Of a DNA stretch of 9,372 nucleotides, positions 1 through 9,372 are shown in pieces. This DNA comes from a virus. Within the stretch, counting starts at the first letter, position 1; each line of letters starts with the position of its first letter. The stretch lies in the UHGV virus genome UHGV-1330501. One strand, given 5' to 3'. Below the pieces are notes generated by a model. That model had not been told where the DNA came from, ran no database searches, and saw nothing but the letters and a program-made list of their open reading frames with translations. Position numbers and translations under genes: made by a program.

Positions 1-55
1 TTCGATTTTCGCAGCGGCCTTTTCAACATAACGAGTCGTACATTATGCGCACCAA
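1..55. repeat. Left copy of a perfect 55-bp direct repeat (identical to 8400..8454); contains a dif-like XerD-arm/central/XerC-arm element (21..53) and the right half of a terminator stem (10..20). Probably truncated by the window start.
   Basis: Exact identity of 1..55 with 8400..8454; sequence diverges at 56 versus 8455. Plus-strand TTATGCGCACC (43..53) is the reverse complement of the E. coli dif XerC arm GGTGCGCATAA. Confidence 0.85.
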
Positions 56-91
56 TGGTAAGGATGGCGGGAACTGGCGTTACCGGTGCCG

Positions 92-325
92 TCATTGGTC
101 ACAGACCGTAATCCACTGGCCCAGGACGTCTTTCAGGCAATGTTGGCATAAATCCAGTTTTAAGCGATTACTGTCACCAAAAATTGAACCGTATCCAGCT
201 AAGTGATTAACAGACAGAAACTCATTGAACTCAATGTCATCTACCACCGTCTTCGCATGGCGACCACAGCGATCGCAGGTCTTCGCACATAACATTACAG
301 TATCGCTGGATGTGAAAAATTGCAT
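92..325 (-). CDS. Hypothetical small Cys-rich protein (77 aa), possible zinc-ribbon fold (C-x3-C-x2-C ... C-x2-C); accessory gene with no Ff counterpart.
   Basis: ATG at 325 preceded by strong SD (GAGGAG about 7 nt upstream on minus strand); Cys cluster CAKTCDRC ... CQHC in translation. Confidence 0.55.
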   Translation of the reverse strand: MQFFTSSDTVMLCAKTCDRCGRHAKTVVDDIEFNEFLSVNHLAGYGSIFGDSNRLKLDLCQHCLKDVLGQWITVCDQ

Positions 326-397
326 TTTATCTCCTCGTAATGCTGCCGCGCCGAATCAGCAATAACGCTAAAAAAACAGAATTGTTCGGCTTGGCCA

Positions 398-438
398 ACC
401 CCTGACACTAACAAAAGCAAGTTTTGTCATTGTCCGGG
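398..438 (-). promoter_or_regulatory. Long imperfect hairpin (about 19-bp stem, two mismatches, short loop) directly downstream of the 102-aa ORF; candidate terminator or minus-strand-origin-like structure. A run of seven T on the minus strand lies about 20 nt further on (plus 370..376).
   Basis: Plus-strand aacccctgacactaacaaaagcaagttttgtcattgtccggggtt is self-complementary (CCCCTGACA / TGTCCGGGG outer arms, ACAAAAG / GTTTTGT inner arms). Confidence 0.35.
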
Positions 439-442
439 GTTA

Positions 443-751
443 TCATATAAACCAATAGACCGTCCTTACGCCATTCTGGTTATCAATAACATAGCCGCAT
501 TGTTTCCTTAAAAATTCTTCTGCTAAATCAATGGCTTTTACAGAAATCTCATAAGAAGGAAGTAAAGTGTATCCTTTCCCTTCACTGGCAGCTGCTTTGA
601 TCGCATCCAGAGTATTATCAATCAGTAACAGAGCAAGTGATGCTTCATTTACCTGAGCCGAAGAACTTCTGGCTGCAAGTGTCATTGTTTTTGCTTCTTC
701 CGCTGTAATCGTTCGTTCTGCCAGAGCAGATAAAATCCCATAAGAATCCAT
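443..751 (-). CDS. Hypothetical protein (102 aa), Ala/Leu-rich and probably helical; accessory gene in the position of the Ff noncoding intergenic region.
   Basis: ATG at 751 with GGGG about 7 nt upstream; same strand as phage genes, immediately after the gene IV terminal hairpin. No recognisable family. Confidence 0.5.
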   Translation of the reverse strand: MDSYGILSALAERTITAEEAKTMTLAARSSSAQVNEASLALLLIDNTLDAIKAAASEGKGYTLLPSYEISVKAIDLAEEFLRKQCGYVIDNQNGVRTVYWFI

Positions 752-772
752 TAGTTACCCCAATCAATAATG

Positions 773-830
773 TCCATTTGATGGATAGCGAGCAGGGCTC
801 ACGCACCTACCCGCTATCCATCAAAGTGGA
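773..830 (-). promoter_or_regulatory. Large hairpin (about 18-bp stem with one bulge, 21-nt loop) overlapping the gene IV stop codon; candidate packaging signal and/or gene IV terminator, as in Ff phages.
   Basis: tccatttgatggatagcg (773..790) pairs with cgctatccatcaaagtgga (812..830); position directly after gene IV matches where the Ff packaging-signal hairpin lies. Confidence 0.45.
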
Positions 831-2086
831 CGAATGATATGTGCTGTAAGCAAAATATACATAATACGCTGTTCATTGCTGTCTGCCTTGCTACTGAAAA
901 TCCAGCCTATAAGAGGAATTTTACTTATAACTGGAACTGAACGCTCGGCATTGCTGAACGATGAATCGATAAGCCCTCCCAATAACAACGTCTGACCATC
1001 CTTAATCTGGACTGTCGTCTGAATCTGGCGCTGATTAGTAATAATATCGGATGCCTGATCATCATTGCTGATTGAATCAGCGCGAGTGTCGATAGTCAGA
1101 ACTAGTTGCCCGTTACCCATGACAACAGGCGTTACCTTGAGAGAAACGCCAACATCATGACGCTCGATAGTCTGAAACGGATTATTTACCCCGGCAGATT
1201 CGCCCGTTACCTTTCCGGTGATAAACGGCACATTCTTACCTACGGAAATGTAACCAGTCTGACCAGACTGAGTAAGAATACGCGGCGTTGAAATCACCTT
1301 AGAGCGTGAATTACTCTGGACAGCACGCAGAGACAGCGCCAACACGTTACCATCAAAAATACCAAAAGAACCGCCCGCCGTAGAAAGAGCGCTACCCAGT
1401 GCAGAAGTATTAAAGCCCCCCGCAACCTTATGACCGGATGCAGAACCTGCCGCAAACGATAAATCAACGCCATCAGACAAGCTGGTTTCAAACATCAGCG
1501 ACTGAATGAGAACCTGATCGCGGGCAACATCCACAGAATTGATAAAATCGGACAGAACCGGCAGCAGCTCGTCAGGCGCAGAAACAATCAGCGAGTTATT
1601 GCCTGGATAATCCACGACATTACCACCACCATTAGAATCAAGATAAATTTTAATCAGTTGCTGAACATCGGACGATCTAACTTTTGTCAGCTTAAAATTT
1701 CTGACCGTAAGCGCCACAGGTACTGGCTGGTAAGATGGCTCAGAAGGAAAAGTATCATAAGACTGGTTATCAGAATCATCGGAATCCGAAACCATCTGTG
1801 AAGGTAATTTAGACGGCAAAGAGACTACCGCAGGATTGCCAGAAAGCATGACAAAACCGTTAGCATTCAGAACAGACTTAAAGAAATCATCAATATTTGT
1901 TGGATTAACATCAGCATTAAATACGGTTACGTTTCCTTTAATATCAGGATTAACAATAACAGGCTTGCCAGTTTTTGAAGAATACCACTGAACAAATGAG
2001 CGAACAGATGAATTATTTAAATTAACAGTTTCAGCAGAAACGCAGAATGAACAGGCAAATAAAAAAGCAACAATAACAGAGCGCAT
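821..2086 (-). CDS. IV: Filamentous phage gene IV protein (pIV), outer-membrane secretin for virion export.
   Basis: Translation aligns along its length with M13 pIV as I recall it (e.g. GSFGIFxGxVLxLSxRA, NVPFITGxVTGESAxVNNPFQTIER, ILVPxLSKIPLIG). Start chosen at the internal Met (MRSVIVAFLFACSFCVSA, signal-peptide-like) with GGAG SD; the longer ORF to 2179 would overlap gene I. Confidence 0.9.
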   Translation of the reverse strand: MRSVIVAFLFACSFCVSAETVNLNNSSVRSFVQWYSSKTGKPVIVNPDIKGNVTVFNADVNPTNIDDFFKSVLNANGFVMLSGNPAVVSLPSKLPSQMVSDSDDSDNQSYDTFPSEPSYQPVPVALTVRNFKLTKVRSSDVQQLIKIYLDSNGGGNVVDYPGNNSLIVSAPDELLPVLSDFINSVDVARDQVLIQSLMFETSLSDGVDLSFAAGSASGHKVAGGFNTSALGSALSTAGGSFGIFDGNVLALSLRAVQSNSRSKVISTPRILTQSGQTGYISVGKNVPFITGKVTGESAGVNNPFQTIERHDVGVSLKVTPVVMGNGQLVLTIDTRADSISNDDQASDIITNQRQIQTTVQIKDGQTLLLGGLIDSSFSNAERSVPVISKIPLIGWIFSSKADSNEQRIMYILLTAHIIRPL

Positions 2087-2093
2087 AATAATA

Positions 2094-2468
2094 TTACTCC
2101 TGACAGGTAACAGTCTGTAAATAACGGCCTTTTCTAATAACAACACGACAGGCATCTTTAATATCAACGGAATAACCATCTTTAATCAAATCAAAATACT
2201 GATATTTCATACCTTTTGCATCAACAAACGTAACGGAAACGTCAAAGCCAAGTTGTGAAAAAGAATTAATAGAAAGTCGGGGTAAGTCACTGGACGAATC
2301 AGGCGTTACCGCCCTCGCCTGTTCAGCATAAGCAGATTTAATAGCTGAGATTTCATCAACATTCTTTCCAGACTGGAGCCAGAAACCAAACGCAAGCCCC
2401 AGCGCCAAAAAAGAAAGCATTAATATAAGACGGTTCGATTTGCGAAAATAAATTTTAGTGAGGCGCAT
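2094..2468 (-). CDS. XI: Putative gene XI protein (pXI), in-frame internal start within gene I at Met241 (MRLTKIYFRK...), as in Ff phages.
   Basis: Internal ATG at the position corresponding to M13 pXI start (MKLTKIYLKK), followed by a hydrophobic membrane segment. Confidence 0.5.
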   Translation of the reverse strand: MRLTKIYFRKSNRLILMLSFLALGLAFGFWLQSGKNVDEISAIKSAYAEQARAVTPDSSSDLPRLSINSFSQLGFDVSVTFVDAKGMKYQYFDLIKDGYSVDIKDACRVVIRKGRYLQTVTCQE

Positions 2469-3188
2469 ATAATAATTAAATCCTCTGTGAACAGAAAATT
2501 GACCGTGCGTGATAAATGGTGGCAAAAGCGAAAATGCGCCATGAGGATAATTATCTGTGAACGCTTGTTTGGTATTGTAAGCAGAATAAAGAGATTTTCC
2601 TGTATATATCCATTTATCAACAGTGATTGAATTAACATTATCACCATATTTGACAATGCCAAAGTGTACCTTTGGTAAAGAAAATCTCGCCCCTGAAACC
2701 AAATTCATAATGGAGCCAACAAAAGGAATGTTTAATTTATCTGAACGGCGACAATAAACAACATGCTCAGCAAGCGCCAGACGAGCTTGCTTATCCATTA
2801 TCGAAATATCCTGAATCAAAAATATAATATCCCAGCCTAATTTTCTGGCATGTAAAAACCAGTCAATAACAGGTTGTCTGTCTTTATCACCCCATGAGCG
2901 GGAATTAAACCAAGTACCACATTCATCAAGTACAAGGAGGCCATTACGGGATTCATCGTAAGATGTATTCCCAATACCAATAGCAAGTAAATCATTTAAT
3001 GAAGGCTTGTCAGGAATGCGAATAACGCGCGTTTTTTTCGCATAACGCCCAACCATAGGCATATTATGCAATTTAAGATCAAGATTAGTGGCAACAGGAC
3101 AACCCTTAGCAAGTCTTTCCTGTATTCTGGAAACACTAACAAGTGTCTTGCCTGAGCCTAATTTGCCTGTTACTACATAAACCGCCAT
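2094..3188 (-). CDS. I: Filamentous phage gene I protein (pI), Zot-like assembly ATPase with Walker A motif GKLGSGKT.
   Basis: N-terminus MAVYVVTGKLGSGKTLVSV closely matches M13 pI (MAVYFVTGKLGSGKTLVSV); conserved LLVLDECGTWFN and ARKLGWDIIFL; start directly follows the gene VI stop. Confidence 0.92.
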   Translation of the reverse strand: MAVYVVTGKLGSGKTLVSVSRIQERLAKGCPVATNLDLKLHNMPMVGRYAKKTRVIRIPDKPSLNDLLAIGIGNTSYDESRNGLLVLDECGTWFNSRSWGDKDRQPVIDWFLHARKLGWDIIFLIQDISIMDKQARLALAEHVVYCRRSDKLNIPFVGSIMNLVSGARFSLPKVHFGIVKYGDNVNSITVDKWIYTGKSLYSAYNTKQAFTDNYPHGAFSLLPPFITHGQFSVHRGFNYYMRLTKIYFRKSNRLILMLSFLALGLAFGFWLQSGKNVDEISAIKSAYAEQARAVTPDSSSDLPRLSINSFSQLGFDVSVTFVDAKGMKYQYFDLIKDGYSVDIKDACRVVIRKGRYLQTVTCQE

Positions 3189-3533
3189 TTAAATCACCCT
3201 GTTTGCATAATCAAGAAATTTTTGTTTTAAATCGAAAACAAAAACACTGATACGAGTAACCATAATAACGTTAACACACGCCTGAAAATGGTCAGGCAAT
3301 ACAGACGCCATTAAATGGGAGAAATCAGCAGGTAAACCGTTATACATGACCTCAGCAAGGTACTGCATTAAAAGCGTAACAGTTGTTGTAATTAATGCGA
3401 CCAATGCAAAGGCGATTAATCCTGTTCTGGTAGCAAGTCGAGCTAAAAAACTCGCCACATAGCCAATAAACAAAGGAACAAGACCAATAAGAAAACGCAA
3501 CAATGCAGGAATACCTAATAATAAAGGCATCAC
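3189..3533 (-). CDS. VI: Filamentous phage gene VI protein (pVI), minor coat protein.
   Basis: N-terminus [15 protein letters not shown] and C-terminal FVFDLKQKF resemble M13 pVI (MPVLLGIPLLLRFL ... FIFDVKQKI); start overlaps the gene III stop (ATGA). Confidence 0.85.
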
Positions 3534-4825
3534 TCACCCCCTTTGCGAAGCAATGAAGTTAAAGAAGTAAAGACATACCAGAACGTAAGGCAATAAAAAA
3601 CCCATGAAAGAACATCTTTAATAGTCAGTAATTTATCGCAACCAATATCAATCTGATAAACCTCTCCGGGAAAAATAATAAAATCAGAGCAGCCGTTACC
3701 ATTGGGTAAATTAGGCAGCATAGCACCTTTATTTAAAAATGCTTCCCATAAAGCACCGTGAGAATCCTTTTCAATTCCCAATTCAGAATCAGCTAAAGTA
3801 GAAGCGCCATCTAATTCAGAGTCGCCCTTTCCATAACGAGAATCACCACCTGAAGGGTCAGCAAAACGGCCAGCCCCCCGCGTAAGATTGTTAATGGAAT
3901 CGTCAAGACGATTTATATTATTCCTGGTTTGTTCATCGGCATTTTTTTTATCATCTGATGAAGTGTCTTTCTCCGTTAATTTATCATGAATATCGCTGGC
4001 TATTTTGGGTGAAGCACCTTCGATCGCAGACTGAATATCACCTTTAGAAAGACTGGAACCACTAGAGCCACCGCCAGAACTACCGCCACCGGACTCACCA
4101 CCGCCAGACTCACCACCACCGGACTCACCACCACCGGACTCACCACCACCGGACTCACCACCGCCGGACTCACCACCGCCGGACTCACCACCGCCAGACT
4201 CACCACCACCATTTTGGGGGGTTGAGGGTTTATCAGAGGGGTCAGCTACAGCACCTGTAGGCTTCCATGTTGCAGCGCAAACAGTACCATCACCCTGACA
4301 AACAATGACACCAGTAGCCTCATATTCACAGCCGTTATAGTAGATATAGCGACCACCATCATATGAATCAACATTATTAAATACACCTTCTTCTGGCGGC
4401 TTCGCTTCACAAATTTCTTCTGGTGTCGGGTCAGTAGGTTTTTCATCAGGAACAGAACGCTGAATATTACCAACAATATAAGCCGTTAAAGACCAATATT
4501 TATCCTTCTGCCCTGGTGAATCGCTGTAAGTACAATCGCCAGTAAAAACAAGACGGAATTCAGAATCAGGCCAGATACCCTCATAAGTTGGTTTAATCCG
4601 AGTAAATACACTCTGAGCACTGGATTTAGCACCCTGACAAGCGGAGGCCTGCATAGCAGCATCAATATAGTAAACCGTTATCTTAGAGCCATCCTGATTG
4701 GTTATTTGCTTACTTTCAGCATAGGCAGAACTTTGATAAGTGGATTTAGTAATGCTTTCCCATGACTCAGCATGTGAAAAAGGAGAAATGAGGACAGCGG
4801 AAAGAATTAATATTTTCCTTCTCAT
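3530..4825 (-). CDS. III: Filamentous phage gene III protein (pIII), minor coat / adsorption protein with Cys-containing N-terminal domains, Gly-rich (GGGES)n linker and C-terminal membrane anchor.
   Basis: Position after gene VIII and its terminator; signal-peptide-like start [19 protein letters not shown] chosen over the longer ORF to 4969, which would overlap gene VIII; Gly-rich linker repeats. Confidence 0.8.
4091..4210 (-). repeat. Tandem array of eight 15-bp units (minus-strand sense CGGTGGTGGTGAGTC and variants) encoding (GGGES)n in the pIII linker, with degenerate copies extending to about 4063.
   Basis: Direct reading of the repeated gactcaccacc(a/g)cc(g/a) units in the plus strand. 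Confidence 0.9.
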
Positions 4826-4843
4826 AGTAACCCGCTTTAATAA

Positions 4844-4862
4844 AGGGGCAACGAGTGCCCCT
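4844..4862 (-). terminator. Stem-loop (AGGGGCA, 5-nt loop, TGCCCCT) between gene VIII and gene III, followed on the minus strand by TTATTAAAG; candidate intrinsic terminator, as after gene VIII in Ff phages.
   Basis: 7-bp GC-rich inverted repeat in the sequence; position matches the Ff gene VIII terminator. The T-tract is weak. Confidence 0.45.
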
Positions 4863-4871
4863 GAGTGAAAT

Positions 4872-5114
4872 TCAAACCGCTTTTGAAGAGAATTTTTTGA
4901 AAATACGAATGGCAAGCCCAGCGCCAACCACAGCAACAACAACAGGCCATACTTTACCAATGAGATCATTTGCCTGAGTCAACAAAGCATCCATTGCCTG
5001 ACCTGCATAATCAGTACCACCTGTAGCGCCTTCAGCCGCAAAAGAACTTGCAGAAATAAAAAGCGCAGTTGAAGCCAAAGCAATTTTATATTTAACAGTA
5101 GACAGAATTTTCAT
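4872..5114 (-). CDS. VIII: Filamentous phage gene VIII protein (pVIII), major coat protein precursor.
   Basis: Signal peptide ending SFA followed by AEG; acidic N-terminus, hydrophobic core and basic C-terminus (KKFSSKAV) parallel M13 pVIII (SFA-AEGDD ... KKFTSKAS); GGAG SD upstream. Confidence 0.88.
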
Positions 5115-5317: not shown

Positions 5318-5635
5318 TTAACCTTTGATCTCTGCGATGCCACCATCGGAAGCAACATTATAAGTTACACCTTCCCTACCCTCCATTGACCACGCACGGA
5401 CATAGACAGGAATTTGAACTAATTTCCCAATGAAAGCATTCGCCTGGTTCATTAGACCTGCGTTAACGAGAGCCTGAGAAACTCGAATAATAATTTGATC
5501 CTGCTTTGTACCACCAAAACCATCAGGTATTTCAAGGCCAATACCAATTTCATTATAATAGCCCTGACCATTAACTTTATTACGTTGGCGGGCTCCCAAC
5601 ATTTTACCCTTAACGAAAAGACCATAATTAGACAT
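5318..5635 (-). CDS. Protein in the gene V position (105 aa); putative ssDNA-binding protein by synteny only.
   Basis: ATG at 5635 with AAGGAAAG SD, 11 nt after the gene II stop. The sequence does not obviously resemble M13 gVp as I recall it. Confidence 0.5.
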   Translation of the reverse strand: MSNYGLFVKGKMLGARQRNKVNGQGYYNEIGIGLEIPDGFGGTKQDQIIIRVSQALVNAGLMNQANAFIGKLVQIPVYVRAWSMEGREGVTYNVASDGGIAEIKG

Positions 5636-5646
5636 ATTACTTTCCT

Positions 5647-5961
5647 TTAATGCCAGCTACTGGCGTGCGAAATACGGTTGTAATCGAAAATAAAACCTTT
5701 CTCATAAATCCATAAGGGGATTTCCGCTGGCTTGGCTTCCAGCGTTCTTATTAGCGGAACAACGTTATTAGAGTCTGGTGAATCACAATAGAAATTAATA
5801 TCGATACCGAACGAAAGCAATTCTCTTCTATGGCGATAAAAAGTGTTATGAGGTAACATTTCTTTCATGTTAGCCCCTTGTTTCCAAAGTAAATAAGTTG
5901 ACTGTATTTTTCTTGGCAGTTTCGTTATTTTTTCATCACTTAAAATAGCATTCTGATTCAT
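5647..5961 (-). CDS. X: Putative gene X protein (pX): in-frame internal start within gene II (MNQNAILSDE..., about 104 aa).
   Basis: Internal ATG at 5961 preceded by GGGAG SD about 8 nt upstream; analogous to Ff pX, the C-terminal third of pII. An alternative internal ATG at 6009 lacks a clear SD. Confidence 0.4.
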   Translation of the reverse strand: MNQNAILSDEKITKLPRKIQSTYLLWKQGANMKEMLPHNTFYRHRRELLSFGIDINFYCDSPDSNNVVPLIRTLEAKPAEIPLWIYEKGFIFDYNRISHASSWH

Positions 5962-6699
5962 TTCTATTCTCCCTACATATTCAGAGAATAATTGACGTGG
6001 TGTTTTCATATTCCAGTTAGCGCCAAGCGTTAAATTTAAATCAATAAGCTCAGTTGTTCTTAATGTTAATTCAATACGTAATTTATCTTTCGTCCAGTCC
6101 AGTAACCCGGCTCGTACAAACTCTTCGGCTATCTGGTGCCCTTTTTTACCAGAAACGTGTTCATCATATTTTGAATAAAATTTCAGACTCCATCGACGGG
6201 AGTTTTTACCTAAATAAACTGTACCGCCTTTCCCACATGCGCGACCATGGCGTGTTTTAGCTTTAAATTCGGCGGCATAAAGCCATGATCTGACATTTTC
6301 CAGCGTAGATAATGAATACATGTAATTAATGTCAATACGTGAAATTTTATACTGACCTGCCATAACGGCTTTATAAGACGCTAAATCATGAGGAATATTC
6401 AATAAGGATAAAATCCTGGCATAGACCGTCAACATGAGCCCTTGTATATCATCCGACCCAACAACAGAATGCCCCTGCAGAAACTTGGAAGGATTACCAT
6501 CAATGTACAAATGTGTCGCTTTACCTTCGCCATTAGATCCTATCGATCGTACTTTCATCGTTGCTTCATGCGAGCCGCGAACAGTCAGTCGCTTAACGGT
6601 TTCCCACTCAATTGCACCGTCAGCATCAACGCTGACAACACTCCCCGCCGGAAGCGGTTTGTGTGTGCAAGGGAAAATCCCGGTAAGCCAATCGATCAC
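5647..6699 (-). CDS. II: Filamentous phage gene II protein (pII), rolling-circle replication initiator. Start placed at GTG 6699 (protein would begin MIDWLTG...); the ORF is open upstream to GTG 6741.
   Basis: Large ORF at the head of the minus-strand gene order; GAGGA SD 8 nt upstream of GTG 6699 and resemblance of MIDW... to the M13 pII N-terminus MIDMLVL. Confidence 0.8.
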   Translation of the reverse strand: MIDWLTGIFPCTHKPLPAGSVVSVDADGAIEWETVKRLTVRGSHEATMKVRSIGSNGEGKATHLYIDGNPSKFLQGHSVVGSDDIQGLMLTVYARILSLLNIPHDLASYKAVMAGQYKISRIDINYMYSLSTLENVRSWLYAAEFKAKTRHGRACGKGGTVYLGKNSRRWSLKFYSKYDEHVSGKKGHQIAEEFVRAGLLDWTKDKLRIELTLRTTELIDLNLTLGANWNMKTPRQLFSEYVGRIEMNQNAILSDEKITKLPRKIQSTYLLWKQGANMKEMLPHNTFYRHRRELLSFGIDINFYCDSPDSNNVVPLIRTLEAKPAEIPLWIYEKGFIFDYNRISHASSWH

Positions 6700-6868
6700 G
6701 AATAAATCCTCAAAATTGCAAAAATGACGACTTACTAACACATGAGTTCAGTAGTTCATTAGTGTTTAAACATTACACCAGTGAGCTAGTGAGTTCAAGA
6801 GGCTTGGATGATATGAGTTCATGAGCATGTATACTCACTTCAAATATTGCATTGAACGAGCGTAAAAA
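6700..6868. promoter_or_regulatory. Divergent intergenic control region between gene II (minus) and the plus-strand accessory operon, with three direct copies of TGAGTTCA (6743..6750, 6790..6797, 6814..6821); candidate operators, promoters and/or plus-strand origin.
   Basis: Direct repeats read from the sequence; location between divergently oriented genes. The first copy lies upstream of the preferred gene II start at 6699. Confidence 0.45.
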
Positions 6869-7051
6869 ATGGCAAAGCGCACGACTTATAACGTGACGGA
6901 AGAAAGAAAAATGAAACTAGAACGACTGGCTATAAATGCCAGTGTAAAACTAGGAAAAACAATTACATGGACAGAGATTTTAGGTTATCTGATTGATAAC
7001 TACTCTAAAGATGCAGCAGAAGATCTCATGTCTGCCAAACAAAAGGATTAA
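6869..7051 (+). CDS. Small basic protein (60 aa), candidate transcriptional regulator (possibly ribbon-helix-helix-like) read divergently from gene II.
   Basis: ATG at 6869 and stop TAA at 7049..7051; a short N-terminal stretch (TTYNVT) followed by charged helical sequence. Function inferred from position and size only. Confidence 0.5.
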   Translation: MAKRTTYNVTEERKMKLERLAINASVKLGKTITWTEILGYLIDNYSKDAAEDLMSAKQKD

Positions 7052-7068
7052 GTACCACGAATGGTACA

Positions 7069-7107
7069 AACGTGCAGTATTACCTACACTGCACGTTCTT
7101 TATTGTG
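7069..7107 (+). terminator. Hairpin (10-bp stem AACGTGCAGT / ACTGCACGTT, 9-nt loop) followed by CTTTATTGTG; candidate intrinsic terminator or attenuator between the regulator and the membrane-protein gene.
   Basis: Perfect inverted repeat plus T-rich tail read directly from the sequence. Confidence 0.45.
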
Positions 7108-7139
7108 CGGATTTTGAACAGCAACAAAGGATCAAAAGG

Positions 7140-7562
7140 ATGAGTAGAAATAACGAAACAAGCGGCGTTGAACTGGTTGTTGTAGGCGTATTTGCTTTCT
7201 GTCTGGCAGTTGTTGCCTGGCTAATGAAAACTTTCGATGTTGAATGGCAAACAGCACTGGAAACTGCGCCTGGCCTGATAGTCTGGCTGCTTGTTGTCGG
7301 TGCGGGGATCTTTTTCGGGATCAAAATGGAAACTGGCCTTATTCGCTGGGGTGCTCCACTGGCGATCGCCCTTCTGATTCCGGTATTCAAGCCAATTCTT
7401 AAGGAAGCTGCCGGAGTTCGTGAAACGGGTGGGCTGGTTTTCGATGATATGGTTTCGTGGTATGGAACTGGCTGGGGAATGTCTCTGATGTTCTTCGGGA
7501 TTCTTATTGTCGGATATGGCCTGCTTTATTGGTGGCACAGAAGAAATTCATATTACTGGTAA
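7140..7562 (+). CDS. Hypothetical integral membrane protein (140 aa, about four hydrophobic segments).
   Basis: Internal ATG at 7140 with AAGGA upstream; four hydrophobic stretches. The longer ORF from 6993 overlaps the regulator gene and the hairpin and is judged an artefact. Confidence 0.6.
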   Translation: MSRNNETSGVELVVVGVFAFCLAVVAWLMKTFDVEWQTALETAPGLIVWLLVVGAGIFFGIKMETGLIRWGAPLAIALLIPVFKPILKEAAGVRETGGLVFDDMVSWYGTGWGMSLMFFGILIVGYGLLYWWHRRNSYYW

Positions 7563-7590
7563 TCAATAAAACGTAGAAGAGAGGAAACAT

Positions 7591-7866
7591 ATGAAACTGA
7601 ATCCTGAGAAATACAATAGAAACATTACCCTGCTATGTCCTGTGTGCGGAAATACAGAGATGGAACACGAGGAAGAGTCTGAAGTCGTTAGATGTGTAGG
7701 CTGCGGGAAAGAATTTACTAATGATGAGTTAATCCAAGAAAACGGGGTGAGTATTGACGCTCATGTAGATGAAATAAAAGAAGAGTTAACAAAAGACATT
7801 CAAAAACAGTTTAACGACATGCTCAAAAAGGCATTTAAGGGAAGTAAGAATATAAGGATCAAATAA
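7591..7866 (+). CDS. Hypothetical zinc-ribbon protein (91 aa; CPVC-x14-CVGC followed by an acidic/basic helical tail).
   Basis: ATG at 7591 with GAGGAAA SD; two CxxC pairs; AT-rich composition distinct from the phage core; stop overlaps the next start (TAATG). Confidence 0.65.
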   Translation: MKLNPEKYNRNITLLCPVCGNTEMEHEEESEVVRCVGCGKEFTNDELIQENGVSIDAHVDEIKEELTKDIQKQFNDMLKKAFKGSKNIRIK

Positions 7867-8345
7867 TGACAACAAGTGATGCCATCGCTTTAGCTGCGCT
7901 TGTAGTATCGATTTACACTATCATATCGTCAGAAATGAAATCGAGAAAAAGCGATAGAGAACAAAAGGTTATAAAGGATGAGCAAGACAGGTTACGTAAG
8001 TTGCTTCTGGAAAAAGAAACAAAGTCAGCAATTAATGAGATGAAAGCTGAGCTTGGTGCTCGCCTCGTAAAAATAGCCAAAAACAACTATAGGCTCAAGA
8101 TATTTAATAGAGGGAGAGTTGAGGCTAAAAATATAGAGATTCATTTCCCTGATAACGATGGAAATGAATATCTTTCAATGCATGATGTAGAAGATAAATT
8201 TCCATATGAGGTATTACACCCGCAACATGGAATTGAAATTTTAGCGGGAATAAGCTTTGGAAGTAAAACTAAATACCGAATAAAACTCATATGGGATGAC
8301 AATTATAAAAGAAGAAATGAAGAGGAGTTTTTCATTTCTATATAA
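7866..8345 (+). CDS. Hypothetical membrane-anchored protein (159 aa): N-terminal hydrophobic helix, charged coiled-coil-like segment, C-terminal globular domain.
   Basis: ATG overlapping the upstream stop; N-terminal AIALAALVVSIYTIISS; AT-rich; followed by a strong terminator. Confidence 0.65.
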   Translation: MTTSDAIALAALVVSIYTIISSEMKSRKSDREQKVIKDEQDRLRKLLLEKETKSAINEMKAELGARLVKIAKNNYRLKIFNRGRVEAKNIEIHFPDNDGNEYLSMHDVEDKFPYEVLHPQHGIEILAGISFGSKTKYRIKLIWDDNYKRRNEEEFFISI

Positions 8346-8385
8346 ATTGGTTCGCACAATGACGTTATGCTAAAGAGGCCGCTGC

Positions 8386-8422
8386 GGGATTCGATTTTCG
8401 CAGCGGCCTTTTCAACATAACG
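8386..8422 (+). terminator. Intrinsic terminator: 11-bp GC-rich stem (AGGCCGCTGCG / CGCAGCGGCCT), 12-nt loop, then TTTT.
   Basis: Perfect inverted repeat 8386..8396 / 8409..8419 followed by a T-tract, 40 nt after the 159-aa gene stop. Confidence 0.75.
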
Positions 8423-8454
8423 AGTCGTACATTATGCGCACCAAAATTATAGAG
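8400..8454. repeat. Right copy of the 55-bp direct repeat, carrying the dif-like element (XerC arm TTATGCGCACC at 8442..8452); putative right attachment site of the prophage.
   Basis: Exact identity with 1..55; overlaps the loop and 3-prime half of the terminator. Confidence 0.85.
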
Positions 8455-8484: not shown

Positions 8485-9372
8485 TTGGAGGCACTCAGTA
8501 TAATCCGGGAGCACTACCGTGATTTTGGCCCCACGCTGGCGCGGGAAAAGCTGGAGGAAGTTCACGGTCTGGTCCTTGGAAAGGAAACCATCCGACGTCT
8601 CATGATAAACGCGGGACTCTGGATCCCCCGCAGACAACGCGCACCGAAAATTCATCAGCCTCGTTACCGGCGTCCTTGTACTGGCGAGCTGATACAAATT
8701 GATGGCTGCGACCACCACTGAATACGGTAAACCGATGATCCTCTACAGCGATAAAGCCAGCGTATTCAGAGTCAATAATAAGCACGCCACCACCGGTCTC
8801 GGCGATACCCAGTTTGCCAGGGCCATGCGCTGCCTTAATATTACTCCTTTGTGTGCTGAAACCAGCCAGGCAAAAGGCCGCGTTGAACGTGCTCATTTGA
8901 CACTTCAGGACCGACTCGTTAAGGAGCTCAGGCTTAAGGGGATCTGTACAATAGAAGCGGCCAATGCATTTGCAGAAGAATACATGGCGGATTATAACCG
9001 GCGCTTTGCCAAAGAACCCTTGCATGATTTTAACGCGTACCGGCCGCTGGCATTAGACGATGACCTTGATGCAGAATTTACCTGGCGAGAGCCTCGCCGG
9101 GTATCAAAAAATCTGACTGTACAATACGATAAAATGCTCTATCTGATTGAGGACAACGAGTACAGTCGAAGAGCCATCGGCAAGTATATTGATGTCTGGC
9201 ATTATCCTGACGGACATAAGGAGCTGCGACTAAATGGCGTGCTGCTACCCTACTCCACCTATGACCGGCTTTCTGAGGTTGAGCCCGTCGCCATTGTAGA
9301 TAACAAGAGACTTGGCCATGTGTTGGATGTTGCCCGTCAGGTCCAGAGAAAACGGGACAATAATCGCTCACT
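8485..9372 (+). pseudogene. DDE-type transposase of an insertion sequence (retroviral-integrase-like catalytic core), interrupted by a frameshift near 8719 and running off the window end; family not determined.
   Basis: Frame 1 (TTG start 8485) ends ...IQIDGCDHH at TGA 8719..8721; frame 2 continues from 8720 with EYGKPMILYSDKASVF ... AKGRVERAHLTLQDRL (DDE-like D, D, E motifs), open to 9372. Confidence 0.7.

Follow-up and report, generated by a model that had tools for sequence, protein, structure and literature searches.

UHGV virus genome UHGV-1330501 was analysed over its full stretch of 9,372 nucleotides (the window), which holds one copy of a filamentous prophage of the CUS-1/YpfPhi type. 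On its minus strand two small open reading frames (ORFs), orf102 and orf77, follow gIV, the secretin gene that closes the morphogenesis operon. Both are real genes under purifying selection and, judging from their distribution among related inoviruses, separable cassettes, each gained or lost independently. Each occupies a cargo slot of its own, and the slots are delimited by two conserved hairpins, HP1 and HP2, which are cis elements of the phage. A first-pass annotation, prepared from the letters of this DNA, had located both ORFs correctly, after gene IV where Ff phages are non-coding. Its suggestion that they form a regulatory or toxin-antitoxin-like pair is not supported, in view of the occurrence of each gene without the other and of the 117-bp gap between them, which contains the independently conserved HP2.

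The gene assignment rests on three observations. The ratio of nonsynonymous to synonymous substitution rates (dN/dS), computed for orf102 with a Salmonella homologue of 60% identity, was 0.14; for orf77 it was 0.11 and 0.06 with homologues of 79% and 71% identity, respectively, and the overall range across both ORFs was 0.06–0.18. Exact copies of each protein were found in more than 1000 public contigs, and the Prokaryotic Genome Annotation Pipeline calls both ORFs as hypothetical proteins (WP_001159442.1 and WP_000378924.1). The exact proteins are placed by UniRef at the taxonomic level of Enterobacterales, and E. coli UM146, F11 and 47 further genomes encode both in identical form. The strong Shine-Dalgarno sequence noticed in the first pass, GAGGAG 5 nt before the ATG of orf77, is kept as GAGGGA or GAGGGG in a Phytobacter (L003) and a Klebsiella (L007) relative. 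An origin as chance ORFs in a non-coding region might draw on the frequency with which small ORFs arise by chance (72 ORFs of at least 30 amino acids in the window) and on a consensus scan of window positions 1–1000 that called neither a sigma-70 promoter nor an intrinsic terminator. It is refuted by the dN/dS values and by homologues at 35–60% identity; a confident structural model and the orf77 Shine-Dalgarno sequence also speak against it, and we give it a practically negligible probability.

The orf77-orf102 segment is present in 49 of 5426 complete E. coli genomes, in all of them at no less than 99% identity and 100% coverage; gI–gIV at 95% identity or more were likewise found in 49 E. 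coli genomes. Within the near-clonal CUS-1 lineage the pair is fixed. The first-pass annotation had proposed checking conservation of the pair in related prophages, and there it breaks down: only the CUS-1 lineage keeps both genes (Table 1). Both are missing from an E. coli relative of 88% identity. Because inoviruses exist with both genes, with orf102 only, with orf77 only and with neither, the two cassettes are likely to be independent of each other. Homologues of orf77 also occur outside phages: a 71%-identical one resides on a plasmid together with ParM, ParB, UmuDC, YubE and a methylase, and others of 50–55% identity on 7-kb Proteus/Providencia plasmids, one of which (pZF2-7kb) has the orf77 homologue divergent from a SIR2-STAND gene.

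Table 1. Occurrence of orf102 and orf77 in inoviruses compared with the window
Element	Backbone identity	orf102	orf77
CUS-1 type	gI at least 96% to window	present	present
Salmonella prophage (L062–L064, L082, L083)	gI/gIV 92–96%	60% homologue	absent, about 330 bp of unrelated DNA in its place before dif
E. coli APEC E19057	gI/gIV 92–95%	absent, unrelated basic 82-aa ORF instead	absent
Phytobacter (L003), Klebsiella (L007, L089), IMG/VR (L087, L088)	gIV 23–29%	absent	56–79% homologue directly before dif

The elements 3′ of gIV follow each other in the order HP1, slot A (orf102), HP2, slot B (orf77) and attP/dif. The structured spacer reported in the first pass is HP2; the 131-nt spacer region folds with –43.3 kcal/mol (z = –4.1 versus shuffles). 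HP2 is conserved in five inovirus variants with five compensatory pairs, and HP1 shows seven compensatory pairs in three variants. HP2 is kept whether it is preceded by orf102, by the unrelated 82-aa ORF or by gIV itself, and with or without orf77 after it. Since both hairpins are conserved independently of the ORFs, the region after gIV is organised as slots. The earlier description of the ORFs as standing in place of the Ff intergenic region is therefore right as to position and incomplete otherwise, since HP1, HP2 and a folded attP are retained and interleaved with the ORFs. By analogy, HP1 and HP2 are candidates for a packaging signal, a minus-strand origin or a terminator. A search for the Ff nick-site motif gave a chance-level match only, and Rfam returned nothing at gathering threshold for the region, just spurious miRNA-like matches on HP1.

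Two further observations concern the same end of the phage. An apparently non-coding element of ~250–330 nt, located between the orf77 slot and dif, is conserved in a Salmonella prophage (L062 10400–10730) and an IMG/VR inovirus (L087 5300–5610); the window lacks it, and Rfam gave no match. Many public assemblies contain in-frame chimeras of the gII N-terminus with the C-terminal part of orf102 or orf77 (P0014, P0019, P0217–P0229), 86–250 aa long and annotated as 'G2P, partial'. They are recurrent deletion derivatives without any morphogenesis genes, possibly miniphage-like or decayed prophages.

Products and relatives of the two genes

Both products are soluble and acidic (isoelectric points of 5.4 for orf77 and 4.7 for orf102) and have no hydrophobic segment. 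Neither has a significant match in Pfam, NCBIfam or PADLOC. Profile searches of Protein Data Bank (PDB) sequences gave nothing below E 0.07 for either ORF, and Foldseek against BFVD retrieved solely uncharacterised small phage proteins (E of 2e-3 or higher). The first-pass statement that neither protein matches a nameable family thus stands for Pfam, NCBIfam and PADLOC; the proteins are nevertheless known as PHROGs 5435 and 4115, to which no function is assigned, and, by position, as YPO2280a/YPO2281 of YpfPhi.

The cysteines of orf77 occupy positions 13, 17, 20, 60, 63 and 75, in the spacing claimed in the first pass (C-x3-C-x2-C, then C-x2-C 40 residues on). The profile and structure-prediction searches proposed there yielded a zinc-finger model and a large HMMER family. 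The AlphaFold2 model (mean predicted local distance difference test score, pLDDT, 91.3) has a beta-hairpin knuckle and a second CxxC knuckle at a helix N-terminus, and with high confidence we predict a four-Cys zinc finger. The zinc-ribbon fold suggested earlier is borne out as regards the zinc finger; the predicted topology resembles a treble clef more than a classical ribbon. Two other readings were dropped: an HNH or beta-beta-alpha-Me nuclease, as orf77 lacks a conserved catalytic His at the end of the first strand and matches neither an HNH profile nor a structure of this kind, and an MqsA-like protein, for which no structural match was found either.

Relatives of orf77 were collected by exhaustive HMMER search with a six-sequence profile over 50%-identity cluster representatives, which gave 1236 representatives at E ≤ 1e-3 and 613 at ≤ 1e-10; a word-indexed search had returned 14, a gross undercount by comparison. 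D51, C60 and C63 are invariant, and C20 is found in all 115 sequences having a residue there (one row is gapped). C17 (111/115), D18, E32, E35, G44, S47, G50, D58 and Q61 are near-invariant, and conservation does not extend to C13 and C75 of the E. coli protein. The family signature reads CDRCG...E..E...GYGS[VI]FGDG...DLCQxC, with a GYGS[VI]FGDG loop and a mean net charge of –4.2. Homologues down to 35–60% identity retain the invariant Cys and Asp residues.

Homologues were located at 60 loci in GTDB species genomes, mostly of Betaproteobacteria, on 51 IMG/VR contigs from inoviruses and tailed phages, and on 30 plasmids. Their neighbours are mixed and include TniQ, integrases, methylases, terminases, and toxin-antitoxin and defence genes; clustering of the neighbours at 58 genome loci revealed no recurring partner family. 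Length and domain content were tallied for 146 new representatives among the 150 matches listed (P0025–P0170). Most of these (110/146) are no longer than 140 aa and mostly stand-alone, and some family members contain two finger copies. Among the 36 longer homologues in the same set, seven carry a C-terminal Xre_MbcA_ParS_C domain (best E 3e-18), one TacA1 and two DUF4926; the Xre_MbcA_ParS_C and TacA1 fusions are distant homologues, with the orf77-like domain at the N-terminus. The orf77 family, of at least 1,236 clusters, is large, unnamed, absent from Pfam and NCBIfam, and associated with mobile elements.

The protein encoded by orf102 is rich in Ala and Leu, as had been stated (15 Ala and 12 Leu of 102 residues). 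Its homologues come from enterobacterial inoviruses only, and a profile search added no further relatives. It is predicted to be a lineage-restricted helical or alpha-beta protein. A match to the Tre1 ADP-ribosyltransferase among PDB sequences (E 0.39) was set aside as noise.

The proposed independent cargo and its rivals

We propose that the minus-strand operon gII-gV-gVIII-gIII-gVI-gI-gIV ends in two independent accessory ('moron') cassettes, whose products would be small, soluble, acidic cytoplasmic proteins. The orf77 product would be a zinc-stabilised finger, from a family whose members are carried singly by inoviruses, tailed phages, plasmids and TniQ-type transposons. Neither gene would be required for phage replication, assembly or integration. 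Each protein would work alone, with a protein of the host or of a competing element as its binding target; alternatively, orf77 may bind a nucleic-acid structure. Both would therefore be regulatory or adaptor factors that favour the lysogen or the phage, and not a poison/rescue pair. We consider this model as a whole moderately probable, and would put forward any specific molecular target only tentatively.

A number of points weigh against the model. The dispensability of both genes, the mode of binding and the benefit are steps that we infer: dispensability because near-identical backbones occur without the genes, and action by binding because the proteins are acidic, small and without a matchable enzymatic signature. 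The conserved acidic and polar residues of orf77 could belong to the active site of a small enzyme or to a second site for metal, not to a binding surface. Inside the CUS-1 lineage co-conservation of the pair is 100%, as a functional pair would give, though the lineage is near-clonal (at least 99% identity). The arrangement HP2-orf77-attP recurs in inoviruses with gIV only 23–29% identical, and the role of orf77 could be tied to the attP/origin end. The structure model of orf102 is of moderate confidence only (pLDDT 72, built from three sequences) and weakly winged-helix-like. Finally, the antitoxin link of orf77-like domains is real yet ambiguous, and holds at the level of the family only, because of two observations. 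No RES toxin was found beside the zinc-finger/MbcA_C fusions examined (L021, L029, L030, L035, L130). At two Hydrogenophaga loci (L022 655–1720, L023 9291–10327) the orf77-like gene lies downstream of a canonical Xre-HTH/MbcA_C (HTH, helix-turn-helix) antitoxin gene, which is the usual position of the RES toxin, and no RES gene is near.

The pair envisaged in the first-pass annotation would be toxin-antitoxin-like or a regulator and its target, one member neutralising or controlling the other and so stabilising the prophage or episome. Adjacency, common orientation and constant company within the CUS-1 lineage would suit such a pair, as would the fusions of orf77-like domains to antitoxin domains elsewhere and the presence of toxin-antitoxin-type cargo in this phage family, for example the Doc-family toxin encoded at the opposite end of the element in E. 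coli KFu015 and in a Salmonella episome. Related inoviruses, however, carry each gene without the other, and orf77 homologues stand alone on plasmids. The hairpin in the 117-bp spacer is conserved even in the absence of both ORFs, whereas toxin-antitoxin operons are tightly coupled, with overlaps or gaps of a few nt. Searches of Pfam, NCBIfam and PADLOC matched neither protein to a toxin or an antitoxin, and the contrast between a tiny orf102 family and a huge orf77 family argues against co-evolution, so that we hold a pair of this kind to be very unlikely. By analogy with PSB15 or with XafT of TLCphi, the proteins might rather serve a core phage function at the neighbouring cis elements, as a binder of the packaging or origin hairpin or as an Xer cofactor at attP. 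The genes are indeed embedded among HP1, HP2 and attP, HP2-orf77-attP is shared by inoviruses with unrelated morphogenesis modules, and small non-structural assembly proteins are precedented in integrative inoviruses (bioRxiv 10.1101/2024.03.19.585677). Yet relatives with 92–96% identical gI/gIV lack orf77 (Salmonella) or both genes (APEC E19057) while retaining HP1, HP2 and dif, and most orf77 homologues belong to tailed phages, plasmids and transposons without such hairpins or dif. Both proteins are moreover acidic, which is unusual among DNA binders, and Pfam finds no DUF3653 or HTH signature in them, making this function quite unlikely.

Counter-defence is a third kind of role, in which orf77, and perhaps orf102, would inhibit an immunity or toxin system of the host or of a rival, in the manner of the small acidic anti-restriction and anti-toxin proteins known from phages and from the leading regions of plasmids. 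The small size, acidity and stand-alone occurrence of orf77 on many kinds of mobile element are in keeping with it. So are homologues beside SIR2-STAND (7-kb Proteus plasmids), AbiEi, GmrSD, HigB, HicA and BrnT, the 71%-identical plasmid copy in the vicinity of YubE and methylase genes, and the fusions with toxin-binding antitoxin domains. This evidence is purely contextual, however, and neighbourhoods of this sort are what any accessory region typically shows; known anti-defence families gave no match, with PADLOC and Pfam both null, and no association with a target gene is conserved. We rate counter-defence as unlikely. A broader version, in which the orf77-type family comprises zinc-finger effectors in toxin-antitoxin or anti-defence conflicts, acting for example as a new antitoxin or sensor module or as an inhibitor of a host immunity protein, and in which the CUS-1/YpfPhi member would account for the fitness and virulence advantage conferred by these prophages on extraintestinal pathogenic E. 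coli and Y. pestis, we likewise judge unlikely. A modest fitness advantage in infection has been reported for CUS-1/YpfPhi in E. coli K1 and Yersinia pestis, and the authors of the YpfPhi review single out the terminal ORFs without function as an open question (PMC4266046).

Under the model of independent accessory cargo, the attR-side ORFs are better studied separately than as a pair, and the spacer hairpins are to be regarded as phage cis elements. The orf77 gene offers an entry point to a family of more than 1,200 clusters that is unannotated in Pfam and NCBIfam. If one biochemical activity were shared by the family, characterisation of the E. coli protein, which is easily handled, would allow annotation of thousands of genes.

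The prophage around the cassettes

Features of the window are collected in Table 2; judging from the ORF listing and Pfam/PHROG assignments, all genes of an Ff/IKe-like set are present on the minus strand. Two copies of the XerC arm of E. coli dif (15 nt, GGTGCGCATAATGTA) lie in the window, at 39–53 and 8428–8442, where none is expected by chance, and the phage unit is therefore 8389 bp. Positions 1–53 repeat 8390–8442; thus, the window starts inside the junction to a second tandem copy. This junction carries an imperfect dif and attP-type inverted Xer sites. The window holds a single filamentous prophage unit of the CUS-1/YpfPhi type, 8389 bp long and inserted at dif through XerCD, together with the junction to the next tandem copy. 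CUS-1 of E. coli O18:K1:H7 and YpfPhi of Y. pestis are both described as dif-integrated and tandemly repeated, with attP formed by a pair of inverted Xer sites (PMC4266046).

Table 2. Features of the prophage in the window
Feature	Position	Strand	Assignment or evidence
Tandem-copy junction: dif-like XerC arm GGTGCGCATAATGTA at 39–53, then attP-type sequence	1..53	(-)	repeats 8390–8442
orf77, 77 aa, last gene before attP/dif, cargo slot B	92..325	(-)	phrog_5435, E 4.5e-46
Shine-Dalgarno GAGGAG of orf77	331..336	(-)	read from sequence
HP2, 47-nt hairpin, 19-bp stem, directly after orf102 stop	396..442	(-)	fold and covariation
orf102, 102 aa, cargo slot A	443..751	(-)	phrog_4115
HP1, hairpin with 20-bp stem, overlapping gIV stop codon	777..825	(-)	inverted repeat 777–796/806–825; –36 kcal/mol
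gIV, secretin, final morphogenesis gene, upstream of orf102 and orf77	821..2179	(-)	Pfam Secretin E 6.6e-43, Secretin_N, GspD N0; phrog_1012
gI/Zot	2094–3188	(-)	
gVI	3189–3533	(-)	
gIII	3530–4969	(-)	
gVIII	4872–5114	(-)	
gV	5318–5635	(-)	
gII	5647–6741	(-)	
Accessory module beyond gII	6869–8345	(+)	
attP-type region, opposite prophage end	8363..8442	(-)	24-nt inverted repeat 8363–8386/8399–8422; XerC arm 8428–8442

Copy number of the element varies between hosts. The extraintestinal pathogenic E. coli strain UM146 has a single copy with the same gene content as the window, located between hipA and the ydeQ/fim cluster, and E. coli KFu015 has at least three tandem copies beside hipBA. On the chromosome of E. 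coli EC5502 (NZ_CP092647.1) the orf77-orf102 segment is found 16 times, pointing to an exceptionally long tandem array or to several insertions. In Salmonella the phage is represented by a 7938-bp circular record, evidently the replicative form. In a single-copy lysogen (L002, JARKOR010000214.1) a perfect E. coli dif, GGTGCGCATAATGTATATTATGTTAAAT, lies 39 bp past the orf77 stop. This contig is binned as a metagenome-assembled genome (MAG) of 'Candidatus Nanosynbacter' despite its E. coli prophage and perfect E. coli dif; it is almost certainly a binning contaminant.

The attL-side module beyond gII is exchanged between otherwise identical phages (the window versus L001 and L069). In the window and in UM146 it consists of a 140-aa ORF, an ECs_2282-family zinc-binding protein (7591–7866; PADLOC candidate PDC-S64, E 4e-7) and a 159-aa ORF; a Doc-family toxin takes its place in KFu015 and in the Salmonella episome. 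Within gIII, a repeat run at 4000–4212 corresponds to the glycine-rich linker of the attachment protein, and the length of the gene varies by strain (1245–1293 nt in annotated copies). Past the prophage end, positions 8485–9372 contain overlapping ORFs on both strands with a GC fraction of up to about 0.51, and look like an insertion-sequence remnant.

Comparison with known systems

The closest published counterparts are YPO2280a and YPO2281 of YpfPhi. Situated in the interval from the secretin gene to attR, at the place that ctxAB takes in CTXphi, they are described as having 'no predictable functions' and as conserved in CUS-1; the same source states 99% identity over 7.1 kb (PMC4266046, Derbise & Carniel 2014). 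By position and by this published identity, orf77 and orf102 correspond to YPO2280a and YPO2281. YpfPhi and CUS-1 have the same two small ORFs after the secretin gene, adjoining attR/dif, and are likewise integrated at dif in tandem arrays, with no known difference from the window. Earlier reports on these phages are Gonzalez 2002, on CUS-1, and Derbise 2007.

The resemblance to ctxAB of CTXphi is one of arrangement: in both cases accessory genes that are dispensable for the phage, in our case by inference from relatives without them, end the morphogenesis operon of an XerCD/dif inovirus and adjoin a folded attP. The proteins themselves are unrelated, and orf77 and orf102 show no signal peptide, toxin domain or evidence of secretion. 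The intergenic region of the Ff phages (f1/M13/IKe) similarly follows gene IV and has strong conserved hairpins, which in Ff comprise the packaging signal and the origins. In the window, by contrast, two protein-coding cassettes under selection are interleaved with the hairpins, the search for a gpII nick-site motif of the Ff type found none, and the region closes with an attP for Xer recombination, a feature absent from Ff.

PSB15 of integrative Xanthomonas inoviruses is, like orf77 and orf102, a small non-structural protein outside the Ff gene set in a dif-integrating inovirus. It differs in being basic and membrane-binding and in having DUF3653 with a WAGFXF motif, and none of these features is present in orf77 or orf102; a Pfam search for DUF3653, the domain of PSB15/XafT factors, gave no match at E ≤ 1 for either ORF. 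With type II antitoxins (Xre/MbcA/ParS of RES-Xre systems, and TacA) the connection is through fusions, in which the orf77-like domain takes the N-terminal accessory position. MqsA offers a parallel, as its zinc-binding N-domain of the CxxC...CxxC type is part of an antitoxin. As a feature without assigned function the two ORFs are already published, and the window is an ordinary CUS-1-type copy; new here are the separability of the genes, the slots bounded by hairpins and, for the orf77 family, which lacks annotation, its size and its fusions to antitoxin domains.

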